Shown here: positions 33,524 through 52,768 of the stretch, piece after piece | Layout: the number at the start of each line of letters is the position of its first letter | Numbering within the stretch: the stretch's first letter is position 1 | From: Bacteroidales bacterium | GTDB taxonomy: Bacteria > Bacteroidota > Bacteroidia > Bacteroidales > UBA1715 | Assembly (NCBI GenBank): GCA_031286165.1 | Contig: JAITUU010000019.1 | Span: forward strand, 6,730-70,729 | Direction of reading: 5' to 3' | Length of the DNA: 64,000 nucleotides | Made by a program: the position numbers and the translations under genes | Notes under the pieces: generated by a model | Told to the model about the DNA's origin: nothing | Databases searched by the model: none | Seen by the model: the letters and a program-made list of their open reading frames with translations, nothing else

Positions 33524-33551
33524 TTCTGTGGGTGAGTGGAGAGAAAAAAAC

Positions 33552-33950: not shown

Positions 33951-33975
33951 AGTCGTATGATTTTAAATTCCTTTG

Positions 33976-34045: not shown

Positions 34046-34108
34046 TTTTTTTTGTAAACAACCTATTTTACTTCCGGAAACCACAGCGTATAATCGTGGG
34101 CGTGTCCA

Positions 34109-34450: not shown

Positions 34451-34465
34451 AATTGATTGTTGTTT

Positions 34466-35191: not shown

Positions 35192-35206
35192 GCTTTACTT
35201 ATTTTA

Positions 35207-35503: not shown

Positions 35504-35514
35504 AGTTTGATTTT

Positions 35515-36651: not shown

Positions 36652-36653
36652 GG

Positions 36654-36923: not shown

Positions 36924-36940
36924 AGTATGCAGGCTTTAAA

Positions 36941-37549: not shown

Positions 37550-37707
37550 TACTGTATCATTTTATTGCCCACAATGAGAATAACACCCACCAAAAGCAAG
37601 GCACCGGCAAGCATACAAATACTTGTTGTTTCTATTGCTACCGGTACTTCGGGCAGCCGACCGTCTTTGATGTCGGCTACTAATTTTGAGTTTAAAAGGT
37701 CATTCAT
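37549..37707 (-). CDS. 52-aa membrane protein missed by the ORF track
   Basis: MNDLLNSKLVADIKDGRLPEVPVAIETTSICMLAGALLLVGVILIVGNKMIQ*; fills the gap exactly, with TAATG coupling to the transglycosylase. Confidence 0.7.
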   Translation of the reverse strand: MNDLLNSKLVADIKDGRLPEVPVAIETTSICMLAGALLLVGVILIVGNKMIQ

Positions 37708-37708
37708 G

Positions 37709-38032
37709 TTATTTTACGTATTGGTCAAATTGTGCTTTGGTAAATTCTTTGGTATTGTAATATTTCACAAGTGCCGCTTCGGTAAGTGGTCCAAAATCAC
37801 CATCAACAACCAAACTCGCTCCTTTACTATTCAAGTGCGTTTGCAATTTTGACACGTTGTCGCTATTCATTACTCCGTTTTTAAGCGGAAAATCGTTGGC
37901 GGTGGAAGAAGAAGTTCCTATACCGGGCACTCTGCTTTGCCCTTGTGATTTTTTACCTTGCACTATAATAATTGCCGCTACTATGGCTGCAATTACTACT
38001 GCTATCAAAATATATTTCGTTGTTTTTGTCAT
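37709..38032 (-). CDS. Membrane-anchored peptidoglycan-binding domain protein
   Basis: N-terminal TM; VSKLQTHLN...LVVDGDFGPLTEAAL (PG_binding_1 motif). Confidence 0.8.
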   Translation of the reverse strand: MTKTTKYILIAVVIAAIVAAIIIVQGKKSQGQSRVPGIGTSSSTANDFPLKNGVMNSDNVSKLQTHLNSKGASLVVDGDFGPLTEAALVKYYNTKEFTKAQFDQYVK

Positions 38033-38044
38033 AATTGAAAGTTT

Positions 38045-38494
38045 TTAAAGTGATACGTTTATTGATTTTAAAATAAAATTGAGTTCTTGCATTTCGCCGC
38101 TACTGAGTTCGGTGGGGAGTAGTTCCGGTAGGTTGCCTTTGTAATTACCCACAAAGAATAAACCTGAATTGACTTCTTTAATGCCAAACACATCTACCAA
38201 GCGCAGCCAATCCGATTTTGTTTTCATTTTTCGGGCTACATTGTAAATTGCCTCTACATTAGTACCTATGCCGTCCATAGCGTTAAATATGGTGGCTGCC
38301 ATATCGCGGTATTCAACATCGGAATAACTGAGGTCATTTTTATTAATTTCGCTTTTGCGCTCGCTCTCACGATTTTTTGAGAGAAACCATTCCTGAATTT
38401 TTGGTTTCAGAAACGTATATCCTACGTATGCCACTATTACTACAATAGTTACGAGAATGATTTTTTGCAATCGAGGGTCTAAATTTTTTAACAT
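38045..38494 (-). CDS. Membrane-anchored protein with a single annexin-like repeat
   Basis: N-terminal TM; MAATIFNAMDGIGTNVEAIYNV...LPELLPTELSSGE resembles annexin AxxLxxAMKGxGTDE...LxSELSG. Confidence 0.55.
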   Translation of the reverse strand: MLKNLDPRLQKIILVTIVVIVAYVGYTFLKPKIQEWFLSKNRESERKSEINKNDLSYSDVEYRDMAATIFNAMDGIGTNVEAIYNVARKMKTKSDWLRLVDVFGIKEVNSGLFFVGNYKGNLPELLPTELSSGEMQELNFILKSINVSL

Positions 38495-38500
38495 AGTTTT

Positions 38501-38803
38501 TTATTTTTTCATTTTCATAAACACAACACCTCCGCCGATTGCGAGCACTACCACCGCAATAATTATTACAATCATGATAGAATTACTTCCTTCGCTCTTG
38601 TTGTCATTATTATTTCCTCCGGCTCCGGCTTTTGCAAGTAATGCCATTTGCTGTATTTGCATTTCGGCTATTCTTTCATTTGACGCTGCTACCGCTGCAT
38701 TTCCAGCTGCGGTTGTTTTTGCAGCCTTATTATTTGCTATGCCAGCCACTACTGTACTTCCTAAGTCGCCTACACATGATATTATTGGTCCTAAATCAAA
38801 CAT
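38501..38803 (-). CDS. Tail-anchored membrane protein, putative virion protein
   Basis: Amphipathic N-terminus, Ala-rich helix, C-terminal TM VVVLAIGGGVVF + MKMKK. Confidence 0.65.
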   Translation of the reverse strand: MFDLGPIISCVGDLGSTVVAGIANNKAAKTTAAGNAAVAASNERIAEMQIQQMALLAKAGAGGNNNDNKSEGSNSIMIVIIIAVVVLAIGGGVVFMKMKK

Positions 38804-38808
38804 AATTC

Positions 38809-39540
38809 TTAATTTTTAAATTTGTTGTACATATACACTCCTCCAATTCCTATTGCAATAACCGCAACTACTATCACTATCGGCAGCATACTGCTTTGTT
38901 GTTGCGTTTTGCTATTGGCTGCAGCATCTCTTAGTGCTGCTTCCTCTTCCAATTTTTTGATATATTGTAGTTCGGCTTTGGTTTGAAGCACACTACTTTC
39001 TACCTCACGTTCGCTTTGTTTCGCCGCTTCTTTTTCTGCGGAGGCAAGTGCTTTGGCTGTTTTGTTTTGCTTTATGCCTTTTACAAGACTGCCGGTAATA
39101 GAAACCGCCGCAGAAACGCCTGCTGTTATCAGTCCTATAAATTCGTGAATATTCGCATTATTCGGAATTTTCGTATCAAACACCTGACGCAGCACCGATG
39201 TATTATCGTTATCGGTAGAAAGTGCCGTTTGTAGCAATTCTTCGCCGCGTGCTATTTGTTGTTTGGTAGTAAATGGCAGACTTTTATAATATGCTTTCAA
39301 AATATCTACCGTATCATCGCCAAGTTCTAAACATCGCCAAAACGCCCATCTATCCGCAAGCATTTCGTTATCTTCGGCAGCGTTCAAATGTCCCAATTCA
39401 TGAGCAATAACAAATTTTTTGCCCATTTCACTGAGTTTATTCCACGCCGCCGGATTTATGTACAGTACGGCAGTATTCAAATCAACCGCTGCCGGTCCGT
39501 TAATCCACGAAACTTCTTGTGTGGAAGAAAATAATTTCAT
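38809..39540 (-). CDS. Zincin-like (HEXXH) metallopeptidase fused to coiled coil and C-terminal TM; start re-called at MKLFSS
   Basis: LYIN...FVIAHELGH...EMLADRWA; C-terminal TM IAIGIGGVYMY + NKFKN. Confidence 0.7.
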   Translation of the reverse strand: MKLFSSTQEVSWINGPAAVDLNTAVLYINPAAWNKLSEMGKKFVIAHELGHLNAAEDNEMLADRWAFWRCLELGDDTVDILKAYYKSLPFTTKQQIARGEELLQTALSTDNDNTSVLRQVFDTKIPNNANIHEFIGLITAGVSAAVSITGSLVKGIKQNKTAKALASAEKEAAKQSEREVESSVLQTKAELQYIKKLEEEAALRDAAANSKTQQQSSMLPIVIVVAVIAIGIGGVYMYNKFKN

Positions 39541-39545
39541 AGTGG

Positions 39546-39716
39546 TTATGATTGTTTCATTACTTGTGATGCTTTTTTCAAGCATATACTCATCTGCACT
39601 TTATGTACTTTTTTTGCCGGAATGGTTTTGTAACCAGCTTTGTTTTGAATGTCCTGAGCAAGTTTCATGAGGCGTTTTGCTCTATTTTGCGCCGCTTTTT
39701 GTTTTAAAGATGCCAT
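39546..39716 (-). CDS. 56-aa basic protein missed by the ORF track, putative DNA-binding core protein
   Basis: MASLKQKAAQNRAKRLMKLAQDIQNKAGYKTIPAKKVHKVQMSICLKKASQVMKQS*; fits the operon spacing. Confidence 0.65.
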   Translation of the reverse strand: MASLKQKAAQNRAKRLMKLAQDIQNKAGYKTIPAKKVHKVQMSICLKKASQVMKQS

Positions 39717-39739
39717 AGTTATACCTTTTTATATTTCAG

Positions 39740-39952
39740 TTAAAACGTTTCGGAAACCCACCAATCGGCACAAACTTGTGTGAGCCATGTGAATTTTCTA
39801 ACTTTTTTGAGTGTTTTTTTCGATTGCAATGCTGCTAATTTTGCAAACAGTTGTTTTTCAGAGTAAGGACCAAATTTGAGATTATTTGCCTCCCCTATTT
39901 CTTTGAGTACAGCCAAAAACTCTTTTTTTCTAATTGATTTCGTTGTTGCCAT
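39740..39952 (-). CDS. 70-aa Lys-rich hypothetical protein
   Basis: ORF in operon orientation; strongly basic. Confidence 0.55.
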   Translation of the reverse strand: MATTKSIRKKEFLAVLKEIGEANNLKFGPYSEKQLFAKLAALQSKKTLKKVRKFTWLTQVCADWWVSETF

Positions 39953-39965
39953 AATTCATGTTATA

Positions 39966-40430
39966 TTATTTTCTCTTTACCGAAGAACTTTTCAGTATCG
40001 TTGGTGCTGCGGTTAGGGCAGCATGATACACACCGTTTTCTTTATTATCCCATAGAAAGTTAGAGTAATTTTTATCTACTGTGAAGGCATATACCGAAGA
40101 ACCGTTTATATAAGAAAGGTGTGTTTGATATATCGCAGTTAATACAGCATCTTCATAACTTGTGTAGCCCCAATTATACCACGGACCGTCCGGATTGAGA
40201 TAGGATATTCGTTTCTTTACTTCTCTCAAACACGATTCGCGCTGTGCCAGCGTCCACAAGCCGTTTGTTAAATCCCACTTACTTGCTACCGAAGCGGTTG
40301 CGGAATTAGAACCCGTACCTGTGGAGTCTTTATTTTCACTTGTTTCGGCAGCATTGCTTTTACCGGCAAATACAAACACCAGCACTATTACCAGCACTAC
40401 TGCAATTCCTATTATTATTTTTTTACTCAT
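39966..40430 (-). CDS. Signal-anchored membrane protein, putative virion protein; start re-called at MSKKIII
   Basis: N-terminal TM IIIGIAVVLVIVLVFVF, Ser/Thr linker, aromatic domain. Confidence 0.65.
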   Translation of the reverse strand: MSKKIIIGIAVVLVIVLVFVFAGKSNAAETSENKDSTGTGSNSATASVASKWDLTNGLWTLAQRESCLREVKKRISYLNPDGPWYNWGYTSYEDAVLTAIYQTHLSYINGSSVYAFTVDKNYSNFLWDNKENGVYHAALTAAPTILKSSSVKRK

Positions 40431-40434
40431 AATT

Positions 40435-40875
40435 TTACTTTTTACAAATTCGTATAATAGCAAACGTTGTGATAGAAACTATGACAATGGCTACAAAACC
40501 CAAAATGATAGTTTTCTTCTGTTTTGCCTCTTTTTCATCAGCCTCGGCGGCTGCTTGGCGTGCTTTTTCCTCCACTTCTTTTTTTGCTTCGGGAGTTATG
40601 CCGTTTTCTATGCCAAACAAATCGAAGGCAGTATCTACGATTGAACGCAAATCTTCTCCACTAAACGCAGCAATCTTTGGTGCCGACTGTATCAACATTC
40701 TGTTCAATTCGTTGCTGAACTGTTTGCCGTGTTTCACGTATGCGCGGCGCAATTCGTTTTCAAGGTTCACATCATTGGGGCGCAACCCATAGCGATTGAA
40801 AAAGAAAAGCCAACTCTTCGGGTCGGCTTTTCTCATTTCGTCAATCAACACATCTATTGATGCCGTTTTTTTCAT
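40435..40875 (-). CDS. Tail-anchored membrane protein, putative virion protein
   Basis: Helical N-domain, AAFSG, C-terminal TM IILGFVAIVIVSITTFAII + RICKK. Confidence 0.65.
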   Translation of the reverse strand: MKKTASIDVLIDEMRKADPKSWLFFFNRYGLRPNDVNLENELRRAYVKHGKQFSNELNRMLIQSAPKIAAFSGEDLRSIVDTAFDLFGIENGITPEAKKEVEEKARQAAAEADEKEAKQKKTIILGFVAIVIVSITTFAIIRICKK

Positions 40876-40881
40876 AGTTAC

Positions 40882-41550
40882 TTAAATTAAGCCGGTTGCT
40901 ATTGCATTTTCCAACTGTGTTACTTGGCTCATGCGGTCATCGAAGTAAAATACCAAACTCACTTTTGCGCCCGCTTGCACTTTGTACAAAAACACACGGT
41001 CTTTGCCCAATACAAGGGTATCGTTTGAAAAATCTACCGATACACGAGTTTGATCGTTTTCCGTTTCCGATTTTGATGCGCTTGGTGTGCGTGTAATAAT
41101 TTGTTTTGGGCGGTGTGGACCAAGTTCGTACACTTGAAGAGCCTCATCGAGTTGGTCGGTTTTTTTACACATCACTCGCACACCTTTAATACGGCATGGA
41201 GTTTCGATAAAGGTTTTGCGAATATCAATCACATTGGCACCTTGTCCGCTTGCTGTTACGGCAGTAGAAGTAGAGGTTGCTGAAATAAATATACCATCGT
41301 CCACAATGCCGGTAACTTTTTCGGAAAAGTCCTTCATTTGCGATGCTTTTTCGTAGTATCCTTCACTGATTGCCACGAATTGGTCCACCGGTGCTTTTCC
41401 ATCGGATGCCGGAGCGGCATTATCTATTACTAAGGTTACGCTTTCTCCCGAAAAAGGATTTACATAACCATTTTGATTGCCGGCATAACCCTTAATTCCA
41501 AGTTGTCGGCGTGCTCGTTGTTGCGGAGTTTCATTTTCTAAAAATTCCAT
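40882..41550 (-). CDS. Candidate major capsid protein (beta-sandwich/jelly-roll type)
   Basis: Only sizeable soluble all-beta-looking protein at the head of the structural operon (SVTLVIDN, RIKGVRV, LQVYEL, VSVDF, VFLYKV, VSLVFYF); no HK97 motifs. Confidence 0.55.
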   Translation of the reverse strand: MEFLENETPQQRARRQLGIKGYAGNQNGYVNPFSGESVTLVIDNAAPASDGKAPVDQFVAISEGYYEKASQMKDFSEKVTGIVDDGIFISATSTSTAVTASGQGANVIDIRKTFIETPCRIKGVRVMCKKTDQLDEALQVYELGPHRPKQIITRTPSASKSETENDQTRVSVDFSNDTLVLGKDRVFLYKVQAGAKVSLVFYFDDRMSQVTQLENAIATGLI

Positions 41551-41582
41551 TACTATATATTTTTTTTTAAGTTATTACTTGA

Positions 41583-41765
41583 TTATTTTCCGGATAGTTT
41601 GTTGGCAAGCGTAAAAGGATTACCGGTAAAATTCGCTACGGTGCCGTTATTTTCGGCTGTTTTTTTCGCTACGGCATTCACCAATGCCATATTCCACACT
41701 GCGGAACCTACAATAAATACCACTAAAATAATAAGTAGTATGTTTGCTGTTTTGATAGAATTCAT
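41583..41765 (-). CDS. 60-aa signal-anchored membrane protein, first gene of the structural operon
   Basis: TM ILLIILVVFIVGSAVW; contains ANFTG. Confidence 0.65.
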   Translation of the reverse strand: MNSIKTANILLIILVVFIVGSAVWNMALVNAVAKKTAENNGTVANFTGNPFTLANKLSGK

Positions 41766-41827
41766 GTTTATTTGTTTTAACTGTTTACATTATTGAGTGC
41801 AAATATTATAACAAGTGATTGTGCCGA

Positions 41828-41888
41828 TACGGACTTTATCGGACTTTATCGGACTTTCAAGCACTTTATCGTGCTTTATCGGACTTTT
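41828..41888. repeat. 10-bp-period direct repeats (GGACTTTATC) upstream of the structural operon
   Basis: ggactttatc ggactttatc ggactttcaa gcactttatc gtgctttatc ggacttttt. Confidence 0.8.
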
Positions 41889-41951
41889 TGTGCATAAAAA
41901 AAGCCACCGTATGGGTGGCTCTTACTGCAAACTAAAAAACGGAACAAAGAT

Positions 41952-42233
41952 TTATTTTTTGAATAAGTCGGAATGAGTTCCGGTATGTGTAAGAACAATG
42001 TTTATTCGATTTTTTCCTGCGTTCCACACAAGCAACCAATCGGGTTGTAAATGTGCTTCCCACAAACCATTGTATTTTCCTTTCAATACGTGTGTTTTAT
42101 ATCTATCTACCGGCAGCGTGCCTGTGGCTTCCAATATTTTAACAGCAACATTTAACAATTCCATATTAAGACCTCGTTTTTGGGCTAATTTGGCTTGTTT
42201 TTTAAATTCGTGGGTGTAAGATATTGTGTACAT
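41952..42233 (-). CDS. yafQ: YafQ-family (RelE fold) mRNA interferase toxin
   Basis: FKKQAKL...HVLKGKYNGLWEAHLQPDWLLVW...TGTHSDLF. Confidence 0.9.
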   Translation of the reverse strand: MYTISYTHEFKKQAKLAQKRGLNMELLNVAVKILEATGTLPVDRYKTHVLKGKYNGLWEAHLQPDWLLVWNAGKNRINIVLTHTGTHSDLFKK

Positions 42234-42237
42234 ATAA

Positions 42238-42453
42238 CTAACTTAAAATTTCCTCTATCGGATTCTTTGTGTTTTTGAGAATATGTATTTTCCCTTCTCG
42301 TAAATCCTGCATTGATTTTTCAAAAGTAGCAGTTGTTTTCGCCGTTCTTTTGGGTAATGTTACACTCCATTTGAATTTTTTTGCCAATTCCGTAAGCAAA
42401 TCAAATTCATTCATGGGAATAGTAATAGTTACTTGTTGTACTGTTGTTGCCAT
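42238..42453 (-). CDS. Cognate antitoxin 1 (71 aa; start MATTVQQ)
   Basis: Directly upstream of the toxin; own TATATTTG -7 box; C-terminal FEKSMQDLREGKI. Confidence 0.8.
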   Translation of the reverse strand: MATTVQQVTITIPMNEFDLLTELAKKFKWSVTLPKRTAKTTATFEKSMQDLREGKIHILKNTKNPIEEILS

Positions 42454-42593
42454 AGCCGTAATAATTAGTTTCTTGTGCAAATATAGAAAATTATTTTTCA
42501 AAATCATTCTCTGTAATGCCATTCGGACTTTTTGTGCATAAAAAAAGCCACCGTATGGGTGGCTCTTACTGCAAACTAAAAAACGGAACACAG

Positions 42594-42872
42594 TTATTTA
42601 TCTAAATAATGTCCTTTCACGCTCAGAATATCAACTGTAATAGCATTATTGTTGATTGAATATACCATACGATTTTTACTATCTATTCTGCGCGACCAAT
42701 ATCCGGAAAGTTCGTGTTTTAATCTTTCCGGGTTCCCCGAACCTGTTTCGGGGTGTTCTTCGAGTTCATCAAGCAATTTTTTGATTTTTTTCAATCGTGG
42801 TTTATCTCCACTTTTCACAAGAAAATCTAATTGTTCTTCAGCCTTTTCCGATAAAAATATGGTGTATTTCAT
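42594..42872 (-). CDS. yoeB: Txe/YoeB-family toxin
   Basis: KIKKLLDELEEHPETGSGNPERLKHELSGYWSRRIDSKNRMVY...VKGHY. Confidence 0.92.
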   Translation of the reverse strand: MKYTIFLSEKAEEQLDFLVKSGDKPRLKKIKKLLDELEEHPETGSGNPERLKHELSGYWSRRIDSKNRMVYSINNNAITVDILSVKGHYLDK

Positions 42873-43093
42873 AATTCTCCGAAGTATTTATTTTTTACAG
42901 ACGAAGTTAATTGACGTTTGGGAGATTTTTCGGCATCTTGAATCATTTTCACAAATGACGCACTGTATTTTGTCGTTTGCGTTGTGCTTTTGGGTAATGT
43001 TACACTCCATTTGAATTTTTTTGCCAATTCCGTAAGCAAATCAAATTCATTCATGGGAATAGTAAGGGTTACTTGTTGTACTGTTGTTGCCAT
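42869..43093 (-). CDS. Cognate antitoxin 2 (74 aa; start MATTVQQ)
   Basis: First 35 aa match antitoxin 1 at 34 positions; different C-terminus (YSASFVKMIQDAEK); overlaps toxin start by 4 nt. Confidence 0.8.
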   Translation of the reverse strand: MATTVQQVTLTIPMNEFDLLTELAKKFKWSVTLPKSTTQTTKYSASFVKMIQDAEKSPKRQLTSSVKNKYFGEL

Positions 43094-43130
43094 AGCCGTA
43101 ATAATTAGTTTCTTGTGCAAATATAGAAAA

Positions 43131-43331
43131 TTATTTTTCAAAATCAGCCTCTGTAATGCCATAATGTGCGCACACGTGTTCGAGTGCTGCACCGTATAAG
43201 CGTTTGTGTGTCATACGATAGCCAAATTCCTGCACGCGGGTAAAGAGCGGCGGCGTGTGCAGTTCCTTTGTAAATACTTCGGTGCTTATGCCTATGGCGT
43301 AGGCAATTTCGTTTTTGTAGCGTGTTTTCAT
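43131..43331 (-). CDS. Small HTH-like protein (DUF4248-like), candidate regulator
   Basis: KNEIAYAIGISTEVF...GYRMTHKRL...VCAHYG pattern. Confidence 0.5.
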   Translation of the reverse strand: MKTRYKNEIAYAIGISTEVFTKELHTPPLFTRVQEFGYRMTHKRLYGAALEHVCAHYGITEADFEK

Positions 43332-43332
43332 G

Positions 43333-43890
43333 TTATTCTGTTGTAATGTGGATTTTTGCGTAGGGATTTTTGAGTGCTTGTGTGCGCACTGTATTCACTG
43401 CGGTTTCTAATTTTTGAAGTATGTGTGGCGGTATCCATGCTTTGCGCAGGCGCGGTTCGTCCATAGTATTGAACAATACATAATCGGTAATGTAAGTAAA
43501 TAATGCCGGTGGAATATCGCGGAAGCCATGAGCAACAAACACAATATCGAGCATCATCTTTCGGCTCACTATAATAATTTTTTTCAATGCCGAATGGTCG
43601 AAATTGCTACCAATGTAAGCGCGTGGGTCGTCGAGAACCAACACGGCATCGTGCAGGTGTTTATAAATTGCCACAAAATCGGTTTCATTTTCATATACCC
43701 GGCAGCGCACGCCGGTATAATCAAAATCTTTTCGCGCCCGGCACTTACATTCGGGAAGTTTATCCGCCCAATCGTCCCACGTGGGCACAACAAAAAGTGC
43801 ACGTTTGCCTATACAAGCAACTGCTTCGGCAAAGGTAGATTTTCCGCAACCACGCACGCCCAGCAATAGCATAATTTTAGTTTTTCGCAT
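43333..43890 (-). CDS. FtsK/HerA-superfamily (A32/P9-like) ATPase, putative genome packaging motor; start re-called at MRKTKI
   Basis: Walker A GVRGCGKST, Walker B VLVLDD, Arg-finger region SRKMMLDIVFVAH; 185 aa with no nuclease domain. Confidence 0.75.
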   Translation of the reverse strand: MRKTKIMLLLGVRGCGKSTFAEAVACIGKRALFVVPTWDDWADKLPECKCRARKDFDYTGVRCRVYENETDFVAIYKHLHDAVLVLDDPRAYIGSNFDHSALKKIIIVSRKMMLDIVFVAHGFRDIPPALFTYITDYVLFNTMDEPRLRKAWIPPHILQKLETAVNTVRTQALKNPYAKIHITTE

Positions 43891-44440
43891 TGGTTTCTTT
43901 CTCTTGTAATTGTTTTCGCAACGCATCTATTTCCATATCTTTTTGCATACCGCGCATTTGTTCTTCTTCCAATTTTCGTTGTGTTGCGCGGTATTTCACG
44001 GCAGTACTGATTTTTAAACCATAAATAAACACCGTAGAAATAGTGGCATTGACCCACGGCGGTACCGGTTTGTTTTCGGGCAACACTTGCGCCCATGCGT
44101 TGGTAAGTTCTTCGAGTTCTTCGGCATCGGCAGCCTCGTAGCCTTCGCGTATAATCATACCCATAATAAAGGTCATGAGCCGGTCGCCGTTTTTTACGAG
44201 TATTTGCGCGGTGGTTTTGTTTACCGCCGCATTAATTTTTTGGCGCACGGCAGTAGGCACATCGCTCAGTTCCTCGCCGCTGTCTTCGGGTTGGTTATAC
44301 ACTTGCTTTTCCTCTTGCAGGTCTTGCAGCAAAGTATCGGCTTCGGTGTAGTCGCTCACTGTGCCGGTTTCAAATGTGTATTCGGATTCCGCCGCCGGTG
44401 TATCTAATACTTCGGCTGGTACAAATTCTTCAAAATTCAT
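43877..44440 (-). CDS. Hypothetical protein with acidic N-terminus, hydrophobic segment and coiled coil (possible packaging accessory)
   Basis: PVPPWVNATISTVFIYGL hydrophobic helix; overlaps the ATPase start. Confidence 0.6.
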   Translation of the reverse strand: MNFEEFVPAEVLDTPAAESEYTFETGTVSDYTEADTLLQDLQEEKQVYNQPEDSGEELSDVPTAVRQKINAAVNKTTAQILVKNGDRLMTFIMGMIIREGYEAADAEELEELTNAWAQVLPENKPVPPWVNATISTVFIYGLKISTAVKYRATQRKLEEEQMRGMQKDMEIDALRKQLQEKETNAKN

Positions 44441-44442
44441 GA

Positions 44443-44736
44443 TTACAAAATAGATAGTAAGAATTGTTTAACAATATCGGCTGCTGGTTGCACATTTTCC
44501 ATGCGCAATATGGTTTTGTTTTCATCTAAAAACACCGTGCCTACATACATGGTATCTTTTACCGGAAACGCCATAAACGATACTGTATTTTTGCTTTCGG
44601 CTTGCATGGTTTTTATGCGTTCCAGCGCAAATGCTTCGAGAGAAGGTAGAAATTGCGGAAGAATTTCGCTTTCCAATAATTTTTTAATTTGCTTTTTTCC
44701 TGCACTTGATTTCAGGAGTGTTTCTAATCCAAACAT
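44443..44736 (-). CDS. Hypothetical protein
   Basis: Tightly spaced ORF in operon orientation. Confidence 0.65.
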   Translation of the reverse strand: MFGLETLLKSSAGKKQIKKLLESEILPQFLPSLEAFALERIKTMQAESKNTVSFMAFPVKDTMYVGTVFLDENKTILRMENVQPAADIVKQFLLSIL

Positions 44737-44737
44737 A

Positions 44738-45433
44738 TTACTCGTATTTTTTCATGATTATTTTGATTTCTTCATTTGTTACCATAGTAGGAAAACTACC
44801 GAAATGGTTACGTGTTTTGGTGTATTTTACAAACAAATCGGTAAGAAGCACGCTTGCGCTAAGGTCGGGTTTATTCAATTTTTCGCGCAGTCGAGCAATG
44901 GTTAAATCCATAATTTCGCGAGCCACATCGCCAAATTCCACCAAATATTTACCGCGTTCGGGCTGTGCACAGGCGAGTGTCATTTTGGTAAGTTTCTGCG
45001 CATTGGCATTTGCCATTTCCTGCACTTTTGCATTTTCTTCCATAAGTGCTGCTATTCGCACTATATCGGCACCGGCTTTTGCTTCGAGTTCTGACACCTG
45101 TGCACGCAAACTTTGTATTTCGGCATCGGCATTGTCGGCACCGCTTGCCGCTGCATCGACAAGGTTGGCATTTTCTACTTGCAGTTCTTGTACTTGATTT
45201 TCAAGCGATTGCAGTTTTTCGCACAATTCGCTCTCGGTACGCTGCGCTTGTTGCAATTCAAAATTCAAATTTATGTTTTCTTTGGCATTGCGCTGGTAGA
45301 AATCGCACAACAGTTCCACAATTTCTTTGGTGGTAAAGTCCGGATTGTCTTCGGCAATTTCATTGAAAGTTGTTTTTATTTCGGGAGTGAATCTACCGGA
45401 GTATTGGGTTTTGTCTTTAAATTTTTCGTCCAT
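44738..45433 (-). CDS. Coiled-coil hypothetical protein (possible RHH-like ends)
   Basis: Central heptad-rich segment; operon head. Confidence 0.65.
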   Translation of the reverse strand: MDEKFKDKTQYSGRFTPEIKTTFNEIAEDNPDFTTKEIVELLCDFYQRNAKENINLNFELQQAQRTESELCEKLQSLENQVQELQVENANLVDAAASGADNADAEIQSLRAQVSELEAKAGADIVRIAALMEENAKVQEMANANAQKLTKMTLACAQPERGKYLVEFGDVAREIMDLTIARLREKLNKPDLSASVLLTDLFVKYTKTRNHFGSFPTMVTNEEIKIIMKKYE

Positions 45434-45455
45434 AGTATTATTTTTTGAGTATTAT

Positions 45456-45486
45456 TTTGATTTACATACGTTTTGATATATATTTG
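45456..45486 (+). promoter_or_regulatory. Consensus Bacteroidota sigma-A promoter facing the 3' end of the BECR-like gene
   Basis: TTTG (45456-59), 19-nt spacer, TATATTTG (45479-86). Confidence 0.55.
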
Positions 45487-45576
45487 CCGTTATAAAATTG
45501 TTGGTCATACGCGCTCTCTTACAAAAGCCTTTTCAATATTATGTAAGCAGGTTAATTGAGGTTAGGGAAAAGGATA

Positions 45577-46020
45577 CTAACTGCCAACCTTGCACAAGTT
45601 GGACGATAACAATTTCTTTCTATACAGTCGCTTCGTTTCTATTGGAGTGGCTGTTTTTATTTGATATTTGTTCTTCTTGTCAAATGCAGTCAGTTGTATA
45701 GCGGCTTGTTTCGATTTTTTATCTTCCATAACAACCAATAAATATGAATTATCGGAACCTTGATATATCGCATTAAAATTATCAACAATGAATTTCACAA
45801 AATCAAAAGCACTTAACCCAAGTTGCGTAAGTTCCGTAGTGTGGTCATTATATATATGCACCAATTCGCGTTCTGAAACTACAATATCGCAGGCTTTGAG
45901 CACAGGTGTTGCCCACGAATTGTATTGTATGCGCCCAACTTTTAAAAATTTGTTATCGTTGTGAGCCTTTGCGCCGGAACCGGCATTGCTCTTTTGTGAT
46001 TGTTTGGTTTGTTGCAGCAT
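45577..46020 (-). CDS. Stand-alone BECR-fold (phage Barnase-EndoU-ColicinE5/D-RelE-like) nuclease candidate
   Basis: IVVSERELVHIYNDH (HIxxxH), IYQG, LLVV, YQIKTA pattern; own TATATTTG box at 46058-46065. Confidence 0.5.
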   Translation of the reverse strand: MLQQTKQSQKSNAGSGAKAHNDNKFLKVGRIQYNSWATPVLKACDIVVSERELVHIYNDHTTELTQLGLSAFDFVKFIVDNFNAIYQGSDNSYLLVVMEDKKSKQAAIQLTAFDKKNKYQIKTATPIETKRLYRKKLLSSNLCKVGS

Positions 46021-46140
46021 GACTAAAAACTATAGTGTATATATTTTTAGCCGTTCACAAATATAGAAATTTTTATTGAAAAACAAACGCTTGTTATAAA
46101 AAATATGCGTTTACAATGCTAACAACTGTAAATCAAATTG

Positions 46141-46518
46141 TTTACAACTTTGAAACCACTTGAAACCACTTTGTATTCAACCGATTTCACTTTGTATTCG
46201 CTTGAAACCGTTTTGTAAGCAGTTGTTTTTACACTGAAATCGGCGTGAAAACAGAAATAGTTTGACGGAATGTACGGACTTCTGTAATATGGTATTATTC
46301 AATATATTACATAAATTCTCGTTTTGACGGAGCAATATGATAATACCACATTCAATACACTGATTATAAAGAAATTACATTCCGTCAAAACAATTTTTTT
46401 GAGTTTTGACGGAAAAACCGTGTCCGTCAAAAACCGTCAAATAAAACTCAAAATTTTGACGGCTTGCAAATGATTGAAAATCATTGTTTTATATACTTAT
46501 TTTTTTCTCTCCGTCAAA
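46141..46518. repeat. Putative replication origin: eight TTTGACGG/CCGTCAAA octamers plus TGAAACC/TTGTATTC repeats
   Basis: Forward copies at 46261, 46323, 46405, 46455; reverse copies at 46382, 46424, 46434, 46511; AT-rich, gene-free. Confidence 0.7.
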
Positions 46519-46590
46519 ACCGTACAAAAGAATATATTATTTAAGAGTATATCATTTGAATTAAGCTGCGCGAGTGGTACAAAAAAGGTA

Positions 46591-46648
46591 AAAAAAAGCC
46601 CCCCGAAGGCAGTGTTTTGTGCAACTGTTTCGGAGGGCTTTTTTTTGA
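46591..46648. terminator. Bidirectional terminator-like hairpin 3' of the replication operon
   Basis: AAAAAAAGCCCCCCGAAGGCAG...CTGTTTCGGAGGGCTTTTTTT. Confidence 0.65.
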
Positions 46649-46664
46649 GTATTATAACAGACCG

Positions 46665-46916
46665 TTAGAGATTATTACAATGCTGCCGATACGTTTTGTA
46701 TTGGGCAAGGTAATCGTTCCACGAAAGCGTGGTGATGCGGCGCAAATTACCATGATGTATTTCAAATTGCCAGCCAAATTCCGCATGATTTTCGCGCAGA
46801 ATTGCAATAACAGTAGATTCAAATTGCACACTATCTTTTGCAATGCTGCCGATGCCGACACTCTGCCCGCTACTCATGTTACGCAAATATGCTTCAACTT
46901 TTCTTTTATACTCCAT
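46665..46916 (-). CDS. Small hypothetical protein coupled to the primase gene
   Basis: TAATG overlap with the primase stop. Confidence 0.6.
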   Translation of the reverse strand: MEYKRKVEAYLRNMSSGQSVGIGSIAKDSVQFESTVIAILRENHAEFGWQFEIHHGNLRRITTLSWNDYLAQYKTYRQHCNNL

Positions 46917-49699
46917 TAAAACGGTTTTTCTTCGATTGCTTCTATGTGAAAATAATAAACATCGCGCCCATTCTCATAGCCGCGAATCACATTGCGTGAT
47001 TTTTCGGTTTCGGTAAGGAGCAAGTGCGGAGGATTGAAAAGCCATCTTTTGAAACGGCAGAATGTAATGAGTTTTTCTTTCATTTTGCTCATTTTGGCGT
47101 GTTTTGCATATTGTTCCGGCATGGAGTTTTTATATGCGTTGAATATTTCAGCACTATCAATATTACAATTAAGTTTATCGGGCTGAAAAAAATCCTCAGC
47201 CCAGAATATAAATTCTTCGGTGAGTTCCCTGCGTAGTATTCGTTGTTCTATCATATCCATTGGTGGATTTACTTTTTCGCGGAATTTCAAATAAGTATGC
47301 AGGCATTGAGCCATGAAATTATAAAACTCATTCATTTCATTTTCGGTGTAATCGATTGGAATATTTTTACCAAATTCGGTGTATGGCGAAAATTCTTTTA
47401 TTCCTTGTACCGGGTCGTCTCCATGATAATAATCGCAAAAGCCGGTAAACCAAAAACGGCGTTTGAGCGGTCCATCAAAATTTTTCGGTGCATGGTTACT
47501 CGACGCACAGAGTTTTGGTGATTGAGAAAACAGCAATGTAACTTCGTTTTTGTAGAGTGCTCGCACGTCCATACTCTGAGTAATGGGGGGCAGCAGAGCG
47601 TGCAAATCAACCACACTATCAAGGTCATCAAAGTAAAATACTTTGGTTTTGTTTAATTCTACTTTCGACCACAATTTTTCGTCTTTCAAATCAATGCCTT
47701 GCCCACCTTTTCGCTCAAAGGGGCGCACATAACTAAGACTTTCAAAAAATATTGATTTACCGGTACCGCCTTTTTTATCGCCTTTGCTGTCAAGTTCAGT
47801 TTCTATGGCATATACAAGCCACGCCTTTGCCATTTCTTTGTACCGAAACATCATGTAGCCAAGCGCAAGAACTTTACTGATAAAAAACAAGTCCTCCTCG
47901 CGTTTTTCATCAATCGTAAGCGTTTTGCCTTCCTTTTCTTTGCGCCAATAGAACTTTCCTGTATTATACAAAAACTTCAAAAATGAAAAATCTTTGTTGT
48001 TAATCGTTAGGTCAAATCGCTCACTATTAGGCATCGTATTGAGTTGCTGTGCCTTTTCCTTATATTCGTAACTCGTAGGGTTGAGTTCCGAGAGTTCCTT
48101 TCGTAAGCGCACATACGCTTTGCTATAATCTACCCGAAAGGGTTCTTGTTCTTTACGAAAAGTATGGTCTATGATTTCGTATTCGTGTATGAATTTATTT
48201 TTTTCGTTGAATTGCTTTACTTCTAAGCCTTCGGCAGTGATTCGCACGGCTGTATTTTTGAAAAAAAGATAATCGTGCTCTTTGCTCCATGTTTGAAAAT
48301 CAAGGTGTATGCGCGGTATTTTCTTTAAACTCGAAAATTTTACTTGATTACTGCGGTGTATAGTGTTAATAAGTGATTTATTGTAGTATTCCAAGTTTGT
48401 TTTCACAAAATTGATTAATTGTGTGTTTGCGTGGCTATCTACATTGTCTTCGGTAATTTCGTAAGTTATATTATTGTCTATTTGTATGAAATCAAATTTT
48501 GATTTGTTTTGCGGATTGTCAAAAGTCCACAAGCCCAATGCAGAAAGAAAACGATATAAATTATCGTTATCCAAATCGTATTTTATATTTACAATCGTTC
48601 CATCTTTATCTTTTTGCTCTACTTCACTCCAAAATTGCAGGGTATTTGCACTACGCACCAACTGTTTGAATAAGTATTCGTTTCTGGGATATTTTTTATT
48701 TCTGTAATGTACAAAAAAATCTTTTACGTCTTTACAAGGATTGCCTTTGCGGTCGCGAAAATTTTTTAAATCTTCGGGAAGATTGATAATGTGAAAATCC
48801 AAAAATTCCAAAGCGTATTTTTGCGCTTGGCGAATACCGGTAGTGTCGGTATCGTAGCACAAATAGAGTGTTTTAGCAATTCTGCGCAGTGTTTTGTGTG
48901 TGAAATTTGAAATTTCGGCACTTTCGGAATTGAAAAACAGTACATTAAATGATGTATTTGCAAAAATATTGAGCGCATCGCTGCCTCCGGAACAAAGTAT
49001 TACCTCTTCCAATGTATTGTCTTCATCGGGAGCCTTTCCCTCTATAGCTTGATTATATAGCCGCATAGTTTTTGCATTGCCCGAAATGCTGTTTTGTGGT
49101 TTTTCGCCGTAATACGAAAAACGATTGTCTTTCGAGTGGGGCTGATACAAACGACCGTAGATACCATAATCGTACAAAAAAATAGGAAATTCGGTCGTGC
49201 TGCTTATTTCCCAACATTCGGCACCGGTCTTTCCGGGTCGTATAAAACTTTCAACAGAATAGAGGTTAAATTCTCGCTCGCATATTTCGGCTGTTATGTT
49301 TTTGCCAAGTAATGAGAGTTCCGCTTCCGTAAATTGTTTGCGTTTATACGAAAACGTATCTTGATACGCAACCTTTTTGAAACCGGGTTTTGCTTCCGGA
49401 GCCGCTTTGCCATCAATTGGTATATGATAGCGTTCCGCAAGGCGGCGAATAGCATCGCCTTTACTCATGTTTTCTATTTTTGCCACAAAATCTATCACGT
49501 CCATTGTGGAATCCATACACGAAAAACACTTACAGTATTGCTTTGCCGGATTCACACTAAATGCCGGTGTTTTTGTATTGTCGTGGAATGGGCAAAATCC
49601 TGACCAACTACCCCCATTGCGTGTTAAATTTACATAGTCGCCTACCACATCTACTATGTCGGTGGCGTTTTTAATGCGGTTTATTATTGAATTATCCAC
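46916..49699 (-). CDS. Primase-helicase: CHC2 zinc finger + Toprim-like + C-terminal P-loop NTPase
   Basis: CPFHDNTKTPAFSV...CKCFSC; ILCSGGSDAL and CYDTDTTG; GGTGKS, FYFDDL, CASSN. Confidence 0.85.
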   Translation of the reverse strand: MDNSIINRIKNATDIVDVVGDYVNLTRNGGSWSGFCPFHDNTKTPAFSVNPAKQYCKCFSCMDSTMDVIDFVAKIENMSKGDAIRRLAERYHIPIDGKAAPEAKPGFKKVAYQDTFSYKRKQFTEAELSLLGKNITAEICEREFNLYSVESFIRPGKTGAECWEISSTTEFPIFLYDYGIYGRLYQPHSKDNRFSYYGEKPQNSISGNAKTMRLYNQAIEGKAPDEDNTLEEVILCSGGSDALNIFANTSFNVLFFNSESAEISNFTHKTLRRIAKTLYLCYDTDTTGIRQAQKYALEFLDFHIINLPEDLKNFRDRKGNPCKDVKDFFVHYRNKKYPRNEYLFKQLVRSANTLQFWSEVEQKDKDGTIVNIKYDLDNDNLYRFLSALGLWTFDNPQNKSKFDFIQIDNNITYEITEDNVDSHANTQLINFVKTNLEYYNKSLINTIHRSNQVKFSSLKKIPRIHLDFQTWSKEHDYLFFKNTAVRITAEGLEVKQFNEKNKFIHEYEIIDHTFRKEQEPFRVDYSKAYVRLRKELSELNPTSYEYKEKAQQLNTMPNSERFDLTINNKDFSFLKFLYNTGKFYWRKEKEGKTLTIDEKREEDLFFISKVLALGYMMFRYKEMAKAWLVYAIETELDSKGDKKGGTGKSIFFESLSYVRPFERKGGQGIDLKDEKLWSKVELNKTKVFYFDDLDSVVDLHALLPPITQSMDVRALYKNEVTLLFSQSPKLCASSNHAPKNFDGPLKRRFWFTGFCDYYHGDDPVQGIKEFSPYTEFGKNIPIDYTENEMNEFYNFMAQCLHTYLKFREKVNPPMDMIEQRILRRELTEEFIFWAEDFFQPDKLNCNIDSAEIFNAYKNSMPEQYAKHAKMSKMKEKLITFCRFKRWLFNPPHLLLTETEKSRNVIRGYENGRDVYYFHIEAIEEKPF

Positions 49700-49701
49700 A
49701 C

Positions 49702-50061
49702 CTATAAACCTTTAAAAAATTTATTTTTCATAGCCGCGCATAGTTCTTCGTAGGTAGCCATGTAGTTTAAGCCTACGGCATCGCAAATTGCCTCGTAACC
49801 CTTTGGAGTATGTTGTTCCACAAGTCCTTCAATAAAGGATTGTGAAAAACCAATTTCATAGAATAAATCGCTTTCGTCAATATTTAGATGGTAGCGCAAG
49901 TGGTACACTATATCTTCCCTATCGAAGTCGAAAAGTGTTTTTTGTTGAAAGTATTCATCTGCATACGCATTAATTATATCCTGCGGAATTTGTCGAATAA
50001 AATCGTATATTTCAAAGGATGAAATACACGTTACTGTGTTGTCGTTTATTGTTAGTTTCAT
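49702..50061 (-). CDS. Acidic hypothetical protein
   Basis: Tightly coupled upstream of the primase. Confidence 0.65.
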   Translation of the reverse strand: MKLTINDNTVTCISSFEIYDFIRQIPQDIINAYADEYFQQKTLFDFDREDIVYHLRYHLNIDESDLFYEIGFSQSFIEGLVEQHTPKGYEAICDAVGLNYMATYEELCAAMKNKFFKGL

Positions 50062-50109
50062 GTTGTTTTAGTTATTAGTGGTTAGTTATTAATTTTCGTT
50101 TTTGTACAT

Positions 50110-50144
50110 AAAAAACCGGTACAGTTCGTATTGAATTGTACCGG
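50110..50144 (-). terminator. Intrinsic terminator of cassette C
   Basis: Minus strand CCGGTACAATTC-AATAC-GAACTGTACCGG-T6. Confidence 0.75.
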
Positions 50145-50176
50145 GTAGAAGGCTGAGGAAATAAAAAAGTAAGTTA

Positions 50177-50551
50177 TTATTTCTTAAATAAGTCGGAGTG
50201 GGTTCCTAATTGAAACAAGATAAGAGTTAGTTCTTCATTATTCACTTGCCACACCAAAAGCCAATCGGGTTTTACGTGGCATTCCCATGTTTCAGCACCA
50301 TAGCCATGTAATTGGTGGGGAACATATTTAGAATCTAATCGAGCACCTTTGGCAATAGTATGAATTACTCTTTCAAGTAATCGTAAATCCAAATTGCGCT
50401 TGTATGATAATGATAATTGTTTCTTAAACTCATTGGTTGCCAATATTTGGAATATTGCATCGGAATAATCGGCAATCGTATCAAAAAACCCTCTTACCGT
50501 CATTCTTTTTTCTGATATAGTGCCGTGCTGCAACTTTCTCATTTTCTCCAA
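50177..50551 (-). CDS. yafQ: YafQ-family toxin with N-terminal extension (start uncertain)
   Basis: FKKQL...HQLHG...WECHVKPDWLLVW...LGTHSDLF. Confidence 0.85.
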   Translation of the reverse strand: MEKMRKLQHGTISEKRMTVRGFFDTIADYSDAIFQILATNEFKKQLSLSYKRNLDLRLLERVIHTIAKGARLDSKYVPHQLHGYGAETWECHVKPDWLLVWQVNNEELTLILFQLGTHSDLFKK

Positions 50552-50733
50552 TTTTTTGGCGTATGAAGCACTGAAACACGACCATATTTTACATCGTCAA
50601 ACGCTTTTTCCATGCCTGTTTTTACAGGGGTGTTTATTGTCCACTTTAATTTTTTTGCTAATTCCGAAATCAGATTAAAATCTTTCATGGGAATATTAAC
50701 GGTAACGTAAGGTTGTTCGATTGTTGTTGCCAT
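50539..50733 (-). CDS. Cognate antitoxin 3 (64 aa; start MATTIEQ)
   Basis: VTVNIPMKDFNLISELAKKLKW is homologous to antitoxins 1 and 2; MEKAFDDVKYGRV tail. Confidence 0.8.
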   Translation of the reverse strand: MATTIEQPYVTVNIPMKDFNLISELAKKLKWTINTPVKTGMEKAFDDVKYGRVSVLHTPKNWRK

Positions 50734-50758
50734 AGCCGTAAATTTTAAAATTTCTTTC

Positions 50759-50829
50759 TGCAAATATACAACGAAAACAGAAAAAACAATATTTCCTTTT
50801 TCGGTACAATTCAATATGTCAATGAACTC
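50759..50829 (-). promoter_or_regulatory. Cassette C promoter block, homologous to 33976-34045
   Basis: TATATTTG -7 box (50761-68) plus CGGTACAATTCAATA (50802-16). Confidence 0.7.
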
Positions 50830-50878
50830 GATTCCGGTGGGGTACGCACTCTTGCGCACTGATTGTAATGTTCAATTC

Positions 50879-51229
50879 TCAACTTTCAATGTTCAACTGT
50901 TCGGAGAATTGATAGATGCTGCGCACGCGCTTTACTTCCGAAGTCCACACTGTGTGGTCGAAGCCTAATTGCCTACCCGGAATATAACATCTCCAACTTA
51001 CATGGCGGGAATTATGCTCGTATTCCGAAAACATGAGTGCTTTGGTGCGTGGATACGTTTCGTTGAGTTCCAGCATTTTGAGTTGAATTTCTGCTTTCAG
51101 AGCATCGAGGCTCAGGCGCGAGGAAATTAATACATTTTCATACTGTCGGGCAATTTCGCCCATTGCAGCACATTTAGCGTTTTTCTCCGCATACACGCTC
51201 AGCGTGTGGGTAACATACAGTTCTGTCAT
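50879..51229 (-). CDS. Early hypothetical protein; start re-called at MTELYV
   Basis: Same TACGGCT-ATG leader as the antitoxins; first gene after the leftward promoter. Confidence 0.6.
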   Translation of the reverse strand: MTELYVTHTLSVYAEKNAKCAAMGEIARQYENVLISSRLSLDALKAEIQLKMLELNETYPRTKALMFSEYEHNSRHVSWRCYIPGRQLGFDHTVWTSEVKRVRSIYQFSEQLNIES

Positions 51230-51373
51230 AGCCGTAGTGGTTTTAAAACAAAAATGCCGTTTAATTTCTGCACGGCTAAGGACAGTCATTAAACAGCACT
51301 CTTGTTGTACTTTCTTTTCTGTTTACGTTTTTTTAGCCGTTACCAAGCAAACTTTTGTTTGCTTCGCAAAATT

Positions 51374-51438
51374 AGAATTAAATTCCGCAAATAACCACAT
51401 TTTTGAGAATTAAATTCATTAAAAATAGAATTAAATTC
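51374..51438. promoter_or_regulatory. Three identical 12-bp operator-like sites between divergent promoters
   Basis: AGAATTAAATTC at 51374, 51406, 51427; leftward TAATTTTG -7 box abutting the first site. Confidence 0.7.
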
Positions 51439-51473
51439 TTAAAATATTAGAAATCAATTAATTAAATTTAGAT

Positions 51474-51770
51474 ATGAAGTCAATCACAGAAATTTTAAAA
51501 GAGTTACGCGAAAAAAAAGGTAAAACTCAACAGGATTTAGCCAATGTGCTTAATTTGGAGGTTAGTAGTTATGGAAAGAAAGAACTTGGAAAAGCCGATA
51601 TAACCCTAACGCAATTAGAACGTATTTCTAATTTTTATAACATTTCAGTATTGGAACTTTTAGCATACCCCAATACTGTTTCTATTAATGAAAAACAGAA
51701 TATTAAAGGAACATTGAGTATTGAAATAAACGGAGAAAAACAAGATTTTGAGATTAATTTAAAGCAATAG
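51474..51770 (+). CDS. XRE-family HTH repressor
   Basis: LKELREKKGKTQQDLANVL...SYGKKELGKADITLTQLERIS; divergent from the lytic genes. Confidence 0.9.
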   Translation: MKSITEILKELREKKGKTQQDLANVLNLEVSSYGKKELGKADITLTQLERISNFYNISVLELLAYPNTVSINEKQNIKGTLSIEINGEKQDFEINLKQ

Positions 51771-51771
51771 T

Positions 51772-52122
51772 ATGAATTTAAAAATAAAGTGGTGGCACAT
51801 TTGCATTGTAACAATAGGACTGATGGGATTTACTTTTGCGCTTGGTTGTTTTATAGATAGCAAAGTAATATTACTCGAACAAAATTTAATATTAGGATTT
51901 GTTGGTGGTTTGGCAGCATTTATCGTTGTGGGAAATTTTGCACAGGTTTTACATATAAAACAAGATTTAGACGAAAGAATATGCAAAATTGAAAAATTAG
52001 AGGGACGAATTGAAATATTAGAACAAGTCTTTGAAAATTTAGCAAAAGAGAATAGCAATATTGGTGAACTAATAACAAAACTTGCAAAACAAATACTTCC
52101 GGAAGAAAAAACTAATGAATAG
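51772..52122 (+). CDS. Two-TM membrane protein with coiled coil (immunity operon)
   Basis: Two hydrophobic segments followed by heptads; coupled to the repressor. Confidence 0.6.
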   Translation: MNLKIKWWHICIVTIGLMGFTFALGCFIDSKVILLEQNLILGFVGGLAAFIVVGNFAQVLHIKQDLDERICKIEKLEGRIEILEQVFENLAKENSNIGELITKLAKQILPEEKTNE

Positions 52123-52357
52123 AATTATGGACTACTCTCGTTTAAAAGATTTAGATGAAAAAGTACGCAATAAAACAGCGAGCGAACAGGAGAAATTGGA
52201 ATATCTTGAAATGTTGCAAAAAAACGAATCGATTACAAAAAAACAATTGGATAATTACAGAAATGGAAAACTTAAAGATGACTTAATTACTGCTGGCTTA
52301 GCAATTGGCGGTATGTTACTTCTTGCTTGGTTGATAAATAAATTAATAAAAGATTAA
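52115..52357 (+). CDS. Tail-anchored small protein (immunity operon)
   Basis: Charged helical domain + TM LITAGLAIGGMLLLAWLI. Confidence 0.65.
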   Translation: MNRIMDYSRLKDLDEKVRNKTASEQEKLEYLEMLQKNESITKKQLDNYRNGKLKDDLITAGLAIGGMLLLAWLINKLIKD

Positions 52358-52502
52358 CATGACGTTATTTATCGCGATTATCGCAATGATTGCAACATGG
52401 GTAGGAGCATATTGGACATACCAAGCAGCCAATACTGTTCACATAATAAGTAAGAATATTGAAGTAAATGAACAAACAAGGCAAATCATACCACCTTCTA
52501 CC

Positions 52503-52537
52503 CGGTACAATTCAATACAAACTGTACCGTTTTTTTT
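52503..52537 (+). terminator. Terminator of the repressor operon, third copy of the cassette terminator
   Basis: CGGTACAATTCAATACAAACTGTACCG-T8. Confidence 0.7.
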
Positions 52538-52650
52538 GTGCTTTGCAGTAACCATATAGGAACGCACCGGCAATAAAATAAAATAGAAAAAATATATAAA
52601 CAACTGAAAATAAGCGTGAGATACAAAATAGAATAGTTTATTTTTCGACT

Positions 52651-52675
52651 GGGGTTCGATTCCCCGCACCTCCAC
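52651..52675 (+). repeat. attR core (duplicated tmRNA 3' end)
   Basis: Identical to 31556-31580. Confidence 0.92.
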
Positions 52676-52768
52676 TTTCGTTTTGCAAACGACACTGATT
52701 TTCAGTGCATTTACAAAACAAACAACAAAAACACGCGCACTTTGAAAGATTTTTCGTAATTTTGCCTC

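Follow-up and report, generated by a model that had tools for sequence, protein, structure and literature searches.

In T4-type phages, the conserved promoter and terminator stem-loop motifs known as promoter-early stem-loops (PeSLs) flank small, variable, non-essential genes, and exchange of these genes by recombination at the motifs has been proposed (Arbiol et al. 2010, PMC2839356; Comeau et al. 2014, PMC4122927). We describe here a group of cassettes from a termite-gut Bacteroidales genome that, like PeSLs, hold unrelated cargo between the same motifs. Each consists of a 28-nt left-end element, P (GAGTTCATTGACATATTGAATTGTACCG), located just upstream of a Bacteroidetes sigma-A-type promoter, one or two small genes, mostly toxin–antitoxin pairs, and an intrinsic terminator, T, which forms the conserved right end. 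These P...T cassettes differ from PeSLs in their Bacteroidales host, in a temperate carrier residing in the tmRNA gene, in their mostly toxin–antitoxin cargo, and in a left motif, upstream of the promoter, that appears to include an inverted and decayed copy of the terminator. PeSLs of T4-type phages and classical morons are the closest parallels of the cassettes.

Like phage morons, which were reportedly described by Juhala et al. and by Hendrix et al. in 2000, the P...T cassettes are autonomous promoter–gene–terminator units lying between the genes of a phage operon, with expression expected in the prophage. Phage antitermination proteins are believed to override the terminators of classical morons, and we know of no end sequences shared between such morons; the P...T cassettes, in contrast, have common ends, and no antitermination protein was identified for them.

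Boundaries of similar length occur in the dif modules of Acinetobacter plasmids, which are small, often carry toxin–antitoxin genes, are delimited by inversely oriented ~28-bp sites and occur in many contexts; these pdif sites resemble chromosomal dif, with XerC and XerD halves (PMC6449649, PMC13141974). The P...T cassettes share with dif modules the inverted ~28-bp boundaries and the toxin–antitoxin cargo, but their sites are not dif-like, and T is a predicted terminator hairpin. An Xer/dif origin of P and T was rejected, as neither resembles the candidate chromosomal dif TTTTATAATTAATATTATGTTAAAT (C35:53045-53069), which was itself assigned by consensus search only.

Two RNA systems are also relevant. 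In terminator/antiterminator attenuators, complementary RNA segments decide whether a terminator acts, and the arms are local (tens of nucleotides) and covary; the complementary segments of P and T are 485–842 nt apart and show no covariation. In the CI RNA immunity system of phage P4, termination is governed by complementary sequences placed at intervals along an operon; there pairing causes termination, whereas an antiterminator role of P would mean read-through.

Integron cassettes and mobile insertion cassettes or MITEs carry passenger genes without a transposase, and their sites follow a core/inverse-core logic. In integron cassettes, as in P...T cassettes, a short start sequence is repeated, both inverted and direct, in a palindromic end site. 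The P...T cassettes differ in having their own promoters and in lacking an IntI-type integrase and an attI site: the only nearby integrase is that of the tmRNA site, and no attI-like array head was found. What is new relative to known systems is the apparent relic of an inverted terminator upstream of the promoter, the Bacteroidales host and the carriage by an element in the tmRNA gene.

Two cassettes within phage-type operons

The window, that is, the whole stretch of 64,000 nucleotides analysed (GenBank assembly GCA_031286165.1, contig JAITUU010000019.1, positions 6,730 to 70,729), contains an integrated element of ~21 kb (31556..52677). Its attL is the 3' end of the tmRNA (ssrA) gene (31186-31582), its attR is a tmRNA 3' fragment (52616-52677), a 25-nt repeat, GGGGTTCGATTCCCCGCACCTCCAC, lies at both ends, and a tyrosine integrase gene occupies positions 31688-32878. 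Two P...T cassettes and one further copy of the terminator are located in this element.

50802..50829, minus strand: P element of cassette 1, GAGTTCATTGACATATTGAATTGTACCG; the 15-mer discussed below is its 3' half (50802-50816)
50761..50768, minus strand: -7 box TATATTTG of the cassette 1 promoter, with TTG at the -33 position
50539..50733, minus strand: putative antitoxin gene of cassette 1, 64 aa, without a Pfam match
50177..50542, minus strand: YafQ-family toxin gene of cassette 1, 121 aa (PF15738, E = 5e-25)
50110..50144, minus strand: terminator T1, hairpin CCGGTACAATTCAATACGAACTGTACCGG (50144-50116) followed by U6 (50115-50110)
34018..34045, minus strand: P element of cassette 2, with one A>G change
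33978..33985, minus strand: -7 box TATATTTG of the cassette 2 promoter
33552..33950, minus strand: DUF5618 gene, the cargo of cassette 2, 132 aa (PF18498, E = 4e-34)
33488..33523, minus strand: terminator T2, hairpin with a C>U change in the 5' arm, followed by U7; -12.1 kcal/mol
52502..52538, plus strand: terminator T3 at the end of the plus-strand repressor operon; -9.2 kcal/mol, without a P partner

The preliminary description of this region had drawn attention to a 15-mer, TATTGAATTGTACCG, which lies upstream of the -7 box of each cassette and can pair with the cassette's own terminator, and our analysis confirmed its coordinates and pairing in every detail. On the minus strand the 15-mer is found at 50816-50802 and 34032-34018, with the Bacteroidetes-type -7 box TATATTTG ~33 nt downstream (boxes at 50768 and 33985). 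Its perfect reverse complement forms the 5' arm and loop of the cassette 1 terminator (50129-50143), and the corresponding part of the cassette 2 terminator (33508-33522) matches save for one C>T change, which results in a G-U pair. The observation that the third terminator copy has no such partner also held, since the 15-mer does not occur in the operon that T3 closes (52502-52538). In the window, the 15-mer has 6 matches at no more than two mismatches against 0.33 expected from shuffled sequences (0/100 shuffles reached 6).

T1 and T2 have the features of intrinsic (Rho-independent) terminators: a predicted GC-containing hairpin and a U-tract located 30–50 nt past the stop codon of the cargo. 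The T1 hairpin, CCGGTACAATTCAATACGAACTGTACCGG, comprises 8+3 bp with about -14 to -15 kcal/mol (z = -3.85). With 12 nt of left flank each, T1 and T3 form a 43-nt inverted repeat of 95% identity (50110-50152 and 52494-52536), which encloses the immunity region, namely cassette 1, an early gene, divergent promoters and the repressor operon; both terminators face outward.

Upstream of cassette 1 is an early gene with a promoter at 51374, and downstream are a 119-aa gene and a 927-aa primase-helicase gene; cassette 2 precedes the last gene of the late operon. A search for a -7 box between each window terminator (T1, T2) and the next gene found none, indicating that both cassettes interrupt operons. 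In the more distant primase relatives L031, L033 and L035, the early operon runs uninterrupted into the primase gene, and on both grounds we regard the window cassettes as insertions into operons. The earlier placement of both cassettes within operons is thus borne out, and separate promoters directly 3' of T1 and T2, which would have spoken against the function proposed there, were not found. The organisation is that of a phage moron, with its own promoter, gene and terminator between phage-operon genes and missing from L031, L033 and L035.

In the N-terminal coding part, the DNA of the cassette 1 antitoxin is 82% like that of the antitoxins of a toxin–antitoxin array at 42366-43072. This array belongs to two tandem toxin–antitoxin cassettes with a period of 640 bp (41880-43192), situated between operons rather than inside one; they have in common a promoter, the antitoxin N-terminal coding part and the terminator GCCACCCATACGGTGGC followed by U7, and they are without P.

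A family of cassettes with common ends

In the whole genome, 13 copies of the 15-mer were found at no more than one mismatch, compared to 0 for a reversed control. P and T bracket at least 8 cassettes with unrelated cargo (YafQ, DUF5618, Fic, HicA, GNAT, PIN), which are located in three contigs of this genome (C19, C43, C46), one related MAG and one metagenome:

C43 (the window contig): antitoxin and YafQ; DUF5618
C19, in tandem: Fic; 71-aa protein and HicA
C46: small protein and GNAT acetyltransferase
L015 (MAG contig of the same genus): DUF5618
L016 (metagenome contig): DUF5618; small protein and PIN

Each end also occurs singly. P without T was found in at least 4 cassettes: in L016a and the C46 higBA cassette it precedes higBA-type cassettes, as it does in L017, with the same operator-like palindrome, and in L023 it is present as a divergent variant. 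T without P is represented by T3 in the window and by L016:1433. In C19, a second T (C19:11258-11300, loci L018–L020) has A7 on its left and T7 on its right and therefore looks like a bidirectional terminator.

The distribution of the family is narrow. Neither P nor T occurred in 400 other Bacteroidales genomes sampled; at the level of the family, P turned up in a single further genome, which belongs to the same genus, pattern scans of IMG/VR found neither element, and scans of genome contigs and metagenomes added only L015, L016 and L017. Eight DUF5618 homologues at 13 loci were free of P and T, except for a P-like variant without T in L023/L025, as were five loci of primase relatives (L031–L035), and an Rfam search with P and T gave no match. 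It should be noted that all collections searched yielded only about 12 copies of P and 11 of T, so that arguments from rates of change rest on few changes.

P is conserved over all 28 nt, with 11 changes in 336 sites, and the identical 28-mer is found in 5 of the 12 copies (C19, C43, L015, L017). This includes ATTGACA, the seven bases without a partner in T, which are as conserved as the 15-mer. The whole element is far better conserved than the adjacent promoter spacer. The three DUF5618 cassettes (window, L015, L016) illustrate this: the first base of P and the U-tract of T mark the limits of their alignment, P is identical at 25–27 of 28 positions and the T stems are kept, while the gene, the spacer from P to the -7 box (with indels) and the T loop have drifted (77–85% identity), the loop about as fast as the cargo. 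Compared to the window copy, the DUF5618 gene of L015 (4722-5054) lacks 1 nt close to its 3' end, resulting in a truncated ORF, with P and T intact.

Origin of the complementarity and proposed exchange of cassettes

The reverse complement of T reads CCGGTACAGTTCGTATTGAATTGTACCGG, and P can be written as GAGTTC-ATTGACA-TATTGAATTGTACCG. The two have AGTTC and the 15-mer in common; P has 7–8 nt inserted in the loop and has lost the outer arm. The alignment of P to the reverse complement of T scores above 2000 of 2000 shuffles. An intermediate form is found in the vapBC cassette of contig C46 (C46:50988), where a complete inverted T with an A-run stands in the usual place of P and is followed by the same promoter sequence as follows P elsewhere (~90% identity). 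This form argues that the complementarity of P and T is inherited. Judged from these alignments, P is probably a diverged inverted copy of T, which explains the complementarity more simply than selected pairing does. One hairpin module would then stand, as an imperfect inverted repeat, at both ends of each cassette, and the RNA complementarity of 15 nt, or 15+5 nt in full, would be inherited from this inverted-repeat architecture of the DNA.

We consider it about as probable as not (roughly 0.5) that the P...T cassettes form a family of modular, PeSL-like morons with inverted-repeat ends, and this is our best reading of the data. Conserved ends on units with unrelated cargo usually reflect a requirement in cis for movement, and for this reason we prefer an explanation by movement. 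As in PeSLs, genes unrelated to each other lie between the same short promoter and terminator motifs, and it is at these that homology stops. P and T would act as cis-acting joints for the exchange of cassettes between co-resident integrative elements, either by recombination of the PeSL kind between the short conserved ends or by the action of a recombinase. T would serve as an ordinary terminator of the cassette's own transcript, and the downstream phage genes would be reached by leaky or factor-dependent read-through.

Several observations bear on exchange at P and T. The DUF5618 cassette lies in the late operon in the window; in L015, a related element with a primase of 70% identity, it is located downstream of the primase gene. 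At C46:10946-10973 (locus L013), the core of P is fused directly to the U-run and ATGCAG tail of T, without promoter or cargo. The direct 11-mer GAAYTGTACCG closes P and recurs in the 3' arm of T, and the hybrid is the expected product of cassette gain or loss between these repeats. In the C46 higBA cassette, an exact 26-bp direct repeat of the 3' half of P is present on both sides, and P and T are points at which the assembly graph of the source run is interrupted. The hybrid at C46:10946-10973 sits downstream of a primase-like gene of another island.

Among products of PeSL-type recombination, this cargo-less hybrid (C46:10946) is the one that was found; a circular T/P junction was sought in the genome and the loci and was not seen. 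The Logan contigs of the source run contain only assembly breaks at repeats, with no empty sites and no inversions, and no recombinase for the cassettes was found. RNA runs containing this sequence were also sought, with none found. In the comparison of C19 with the window the shared blocks are rearranged, and occupation of the same site by different cargo is not claimed.

The P/T inverted repeat is strongest in its inner parts, unlike classical transposon inverted repeats, which are most alike at the outer tips. The flanks of the 8 cassettes contain no target-site duplication, a feature that, if present in homologues, the preliminary description had taken to indicate transposon ends instead. 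With a mainly inner repeat and no such duplication, the cassettes do not conform to MITEs or mobile insertion cassettes.

If P and T are joints of exchange, small defence and addiction genes (toxin–antitoxin pairs, Fic, DUF5618) would be packaged in this family as plug-in units that are shuffled between the integrative elements of gut Bacteroidales. To our knowledge, no such cassette system has been described in gut Bacteroidales.

RNA pairing and protein binding as other possible functions of P

A role of P in the DNA leaves room for a role in the RNA, and the three main explanations, namely cassette exchange, RNA pairing and protein binding, are not mutually exclusive. The preliminary description proposed that RNA started upstream contains the 15-mer and thereby escapes termination. 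In this model, P takes up the 5' arm and loop of T, together with some of the 3' arm, and blocks the hairpin. With the cassette promoter downstream of the 15-mer, only transcripts reading in from outside would include it: those begun at the promoter of the cassette would lack P and terminate, and lytic read-through RNA would contain P and pass. We consider this antiterminator function unlikely, although its anatomy and energetics are in order. The upstream RNA segment is complementary to the 5' arm of the terminator, as in an attenuator, and the two folds (15+5 bp) are mutually exclusive; the duplex of the 15-mer with its target in T is calculated at -19.6 kcal/mol, compared to -14.0 kcal/mol for the terminator hairpin.

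The suggested folding with and without the 15-mer was carried out as equilibrium partition-function folding, and it gave the predicted effect. The terminator stem forms with a probability of 0.99 in RNA begun at the cassette promoter, and likewise in read-through RNA with a scrambled 15-mer; in unaltered read-through RNA the probability falls to 0.21 and 0.40 for the two window cassettes and to 0.60, 0.01, 0.68 and 0.02 for four others. Competition of P with T is thus predicted in 6 of 8 cassettes, whereas in L016b and L016c the effect is lost (0.99 and 0.93). These folds are equilibrium models of long mRNAs and carry little weight either way.

The genomic positions are also those expected of an antiterminator. 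Both window cassettes, and most of the others, directly precede a gene without its own promoter; the two toxin–antitoxin cassettes between operons (41880-43192) have another terminator and no P; and T3, which should always terminate, has no partner. In addition, the core of P has no stable fold of its own, so that its conservation needs another reason.

The comparative data, however, give a different picture. The covariation that was to be sought in homologous cassettes did not materialise: in the 20-pair helix of P with T, no change was compensatory and one was wobble-compatible, and 8 cells, spread over 5 of the 20 pairs, were broken, while the local hairpins of P and of T lose only 2 cells and have 2 wobble-compatible changes. 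The set comprises 8 P...T cassettes with 6 distinct P and T pairs, and since this sample is small, the result is an absence of support for selected pairing and not its disproof. Changes in the T loop, from ATTCAATA to ATCCAATA or ATTCACTA, and the change of GAACT to GAAAT are never answered in P, and ATTGACA, which does not pair, is no less conserved than the pairing bases. P is found without T (L016a, L017, the C46 higBA cassette and the L023 variant), as T is without P.

The geometry is also unfavourable. The distance of the anti-arm from T, 485–842 nt across translated ORFs, is far from the proximity typical of attenuators (under ~150 nt), and opening the 15-mer in the nascent RNA before T appears has a predicted cost of 4–6 kcal/mol. 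In L015, a different strong terminator (-22 kcal/mol) is separated from the primase start by 45 nt that contain no promoter, and the 450 nt available contain no anti-arm for it, which suggests that this element family copes with terminators by another route.

Thus, the anatomy underlying the proposed antiterminator, with the 15-mer ahead of the promoter and the cassettes inside operons, and the predicted competition are supported, and there is no sign that the pairing has been selected. That P was co-opted as a cassette-borne long-range anti-arm, so that transcripts from outside read through T and the cassette's own transcript stops, is accordingly a doubtful proposition. If it were true, these morons would insulate themselves in the lysogen and yet be transparent to transcription of the interrupted phage operon, with no need of a protein factor. 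Such pairing would amount to a rare form of antitermination that depends on the position of the transcript start, and to a portable design rule by which an anti-arm placed upstream of a promoter permits insertion into an operon without polarity.

A protein site is a slightly weaker candidate still. Here P would be a protein-binding site in the DNA, or a nut-like protein-bound site in the RNA, acting on the cassette promoter or on the polymerase, and its likeness to T would be a relic without a role. Conservation of the whole 28-mer well beyond that of the promoter spacer would fit such a site, as would the tandem ATTGA(C/A)AT repeats within P and its position upstream of different promoters, including higBA promoters with operator palindromes of their own. 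In the weak hairpin of P, both bases of one pair have changed together (G.U to U-A, at C46:10946) and there are compatible single changes, but at -2.9 kcal/mol the hairpin is no more stable than shuffled sequence, and a stable RNA hairpin was rejected as the function of P on this basis. A protein site is not favoured by the spacing of P and the -7 box, which varies (28, 32–33 or 36 nt) and shows no helical phasing; the variable spacing also led us to reject P as an element of promoter geometry. Pfam and PHROGs searches with the flanking early proteins gave no match and so no candidate for either a P-binding protein or an antiterminator.

Chance complementarity, or a generic property of the terminators of this organism, to which one could point because the tail TTTTTTTATGCAC also follows several unrelated chromosomal terminators in this genome, is refuted by the excess over shuffles in the window, the empty reversed control and the absence of P and T from the 400 other genomes.

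Repeats of another kind are present elsewhere in the element. At 41823-41887 of the window, a candidate activator-binding array of five or six 10-bp repeats (GTCCGATAAA-like) immediately precedes the probable late promoter. A AAAGTCAAG repeat, similar to the GTCCGATAAA-like ones, follows a DUF5618 cassette in the related contig L040.
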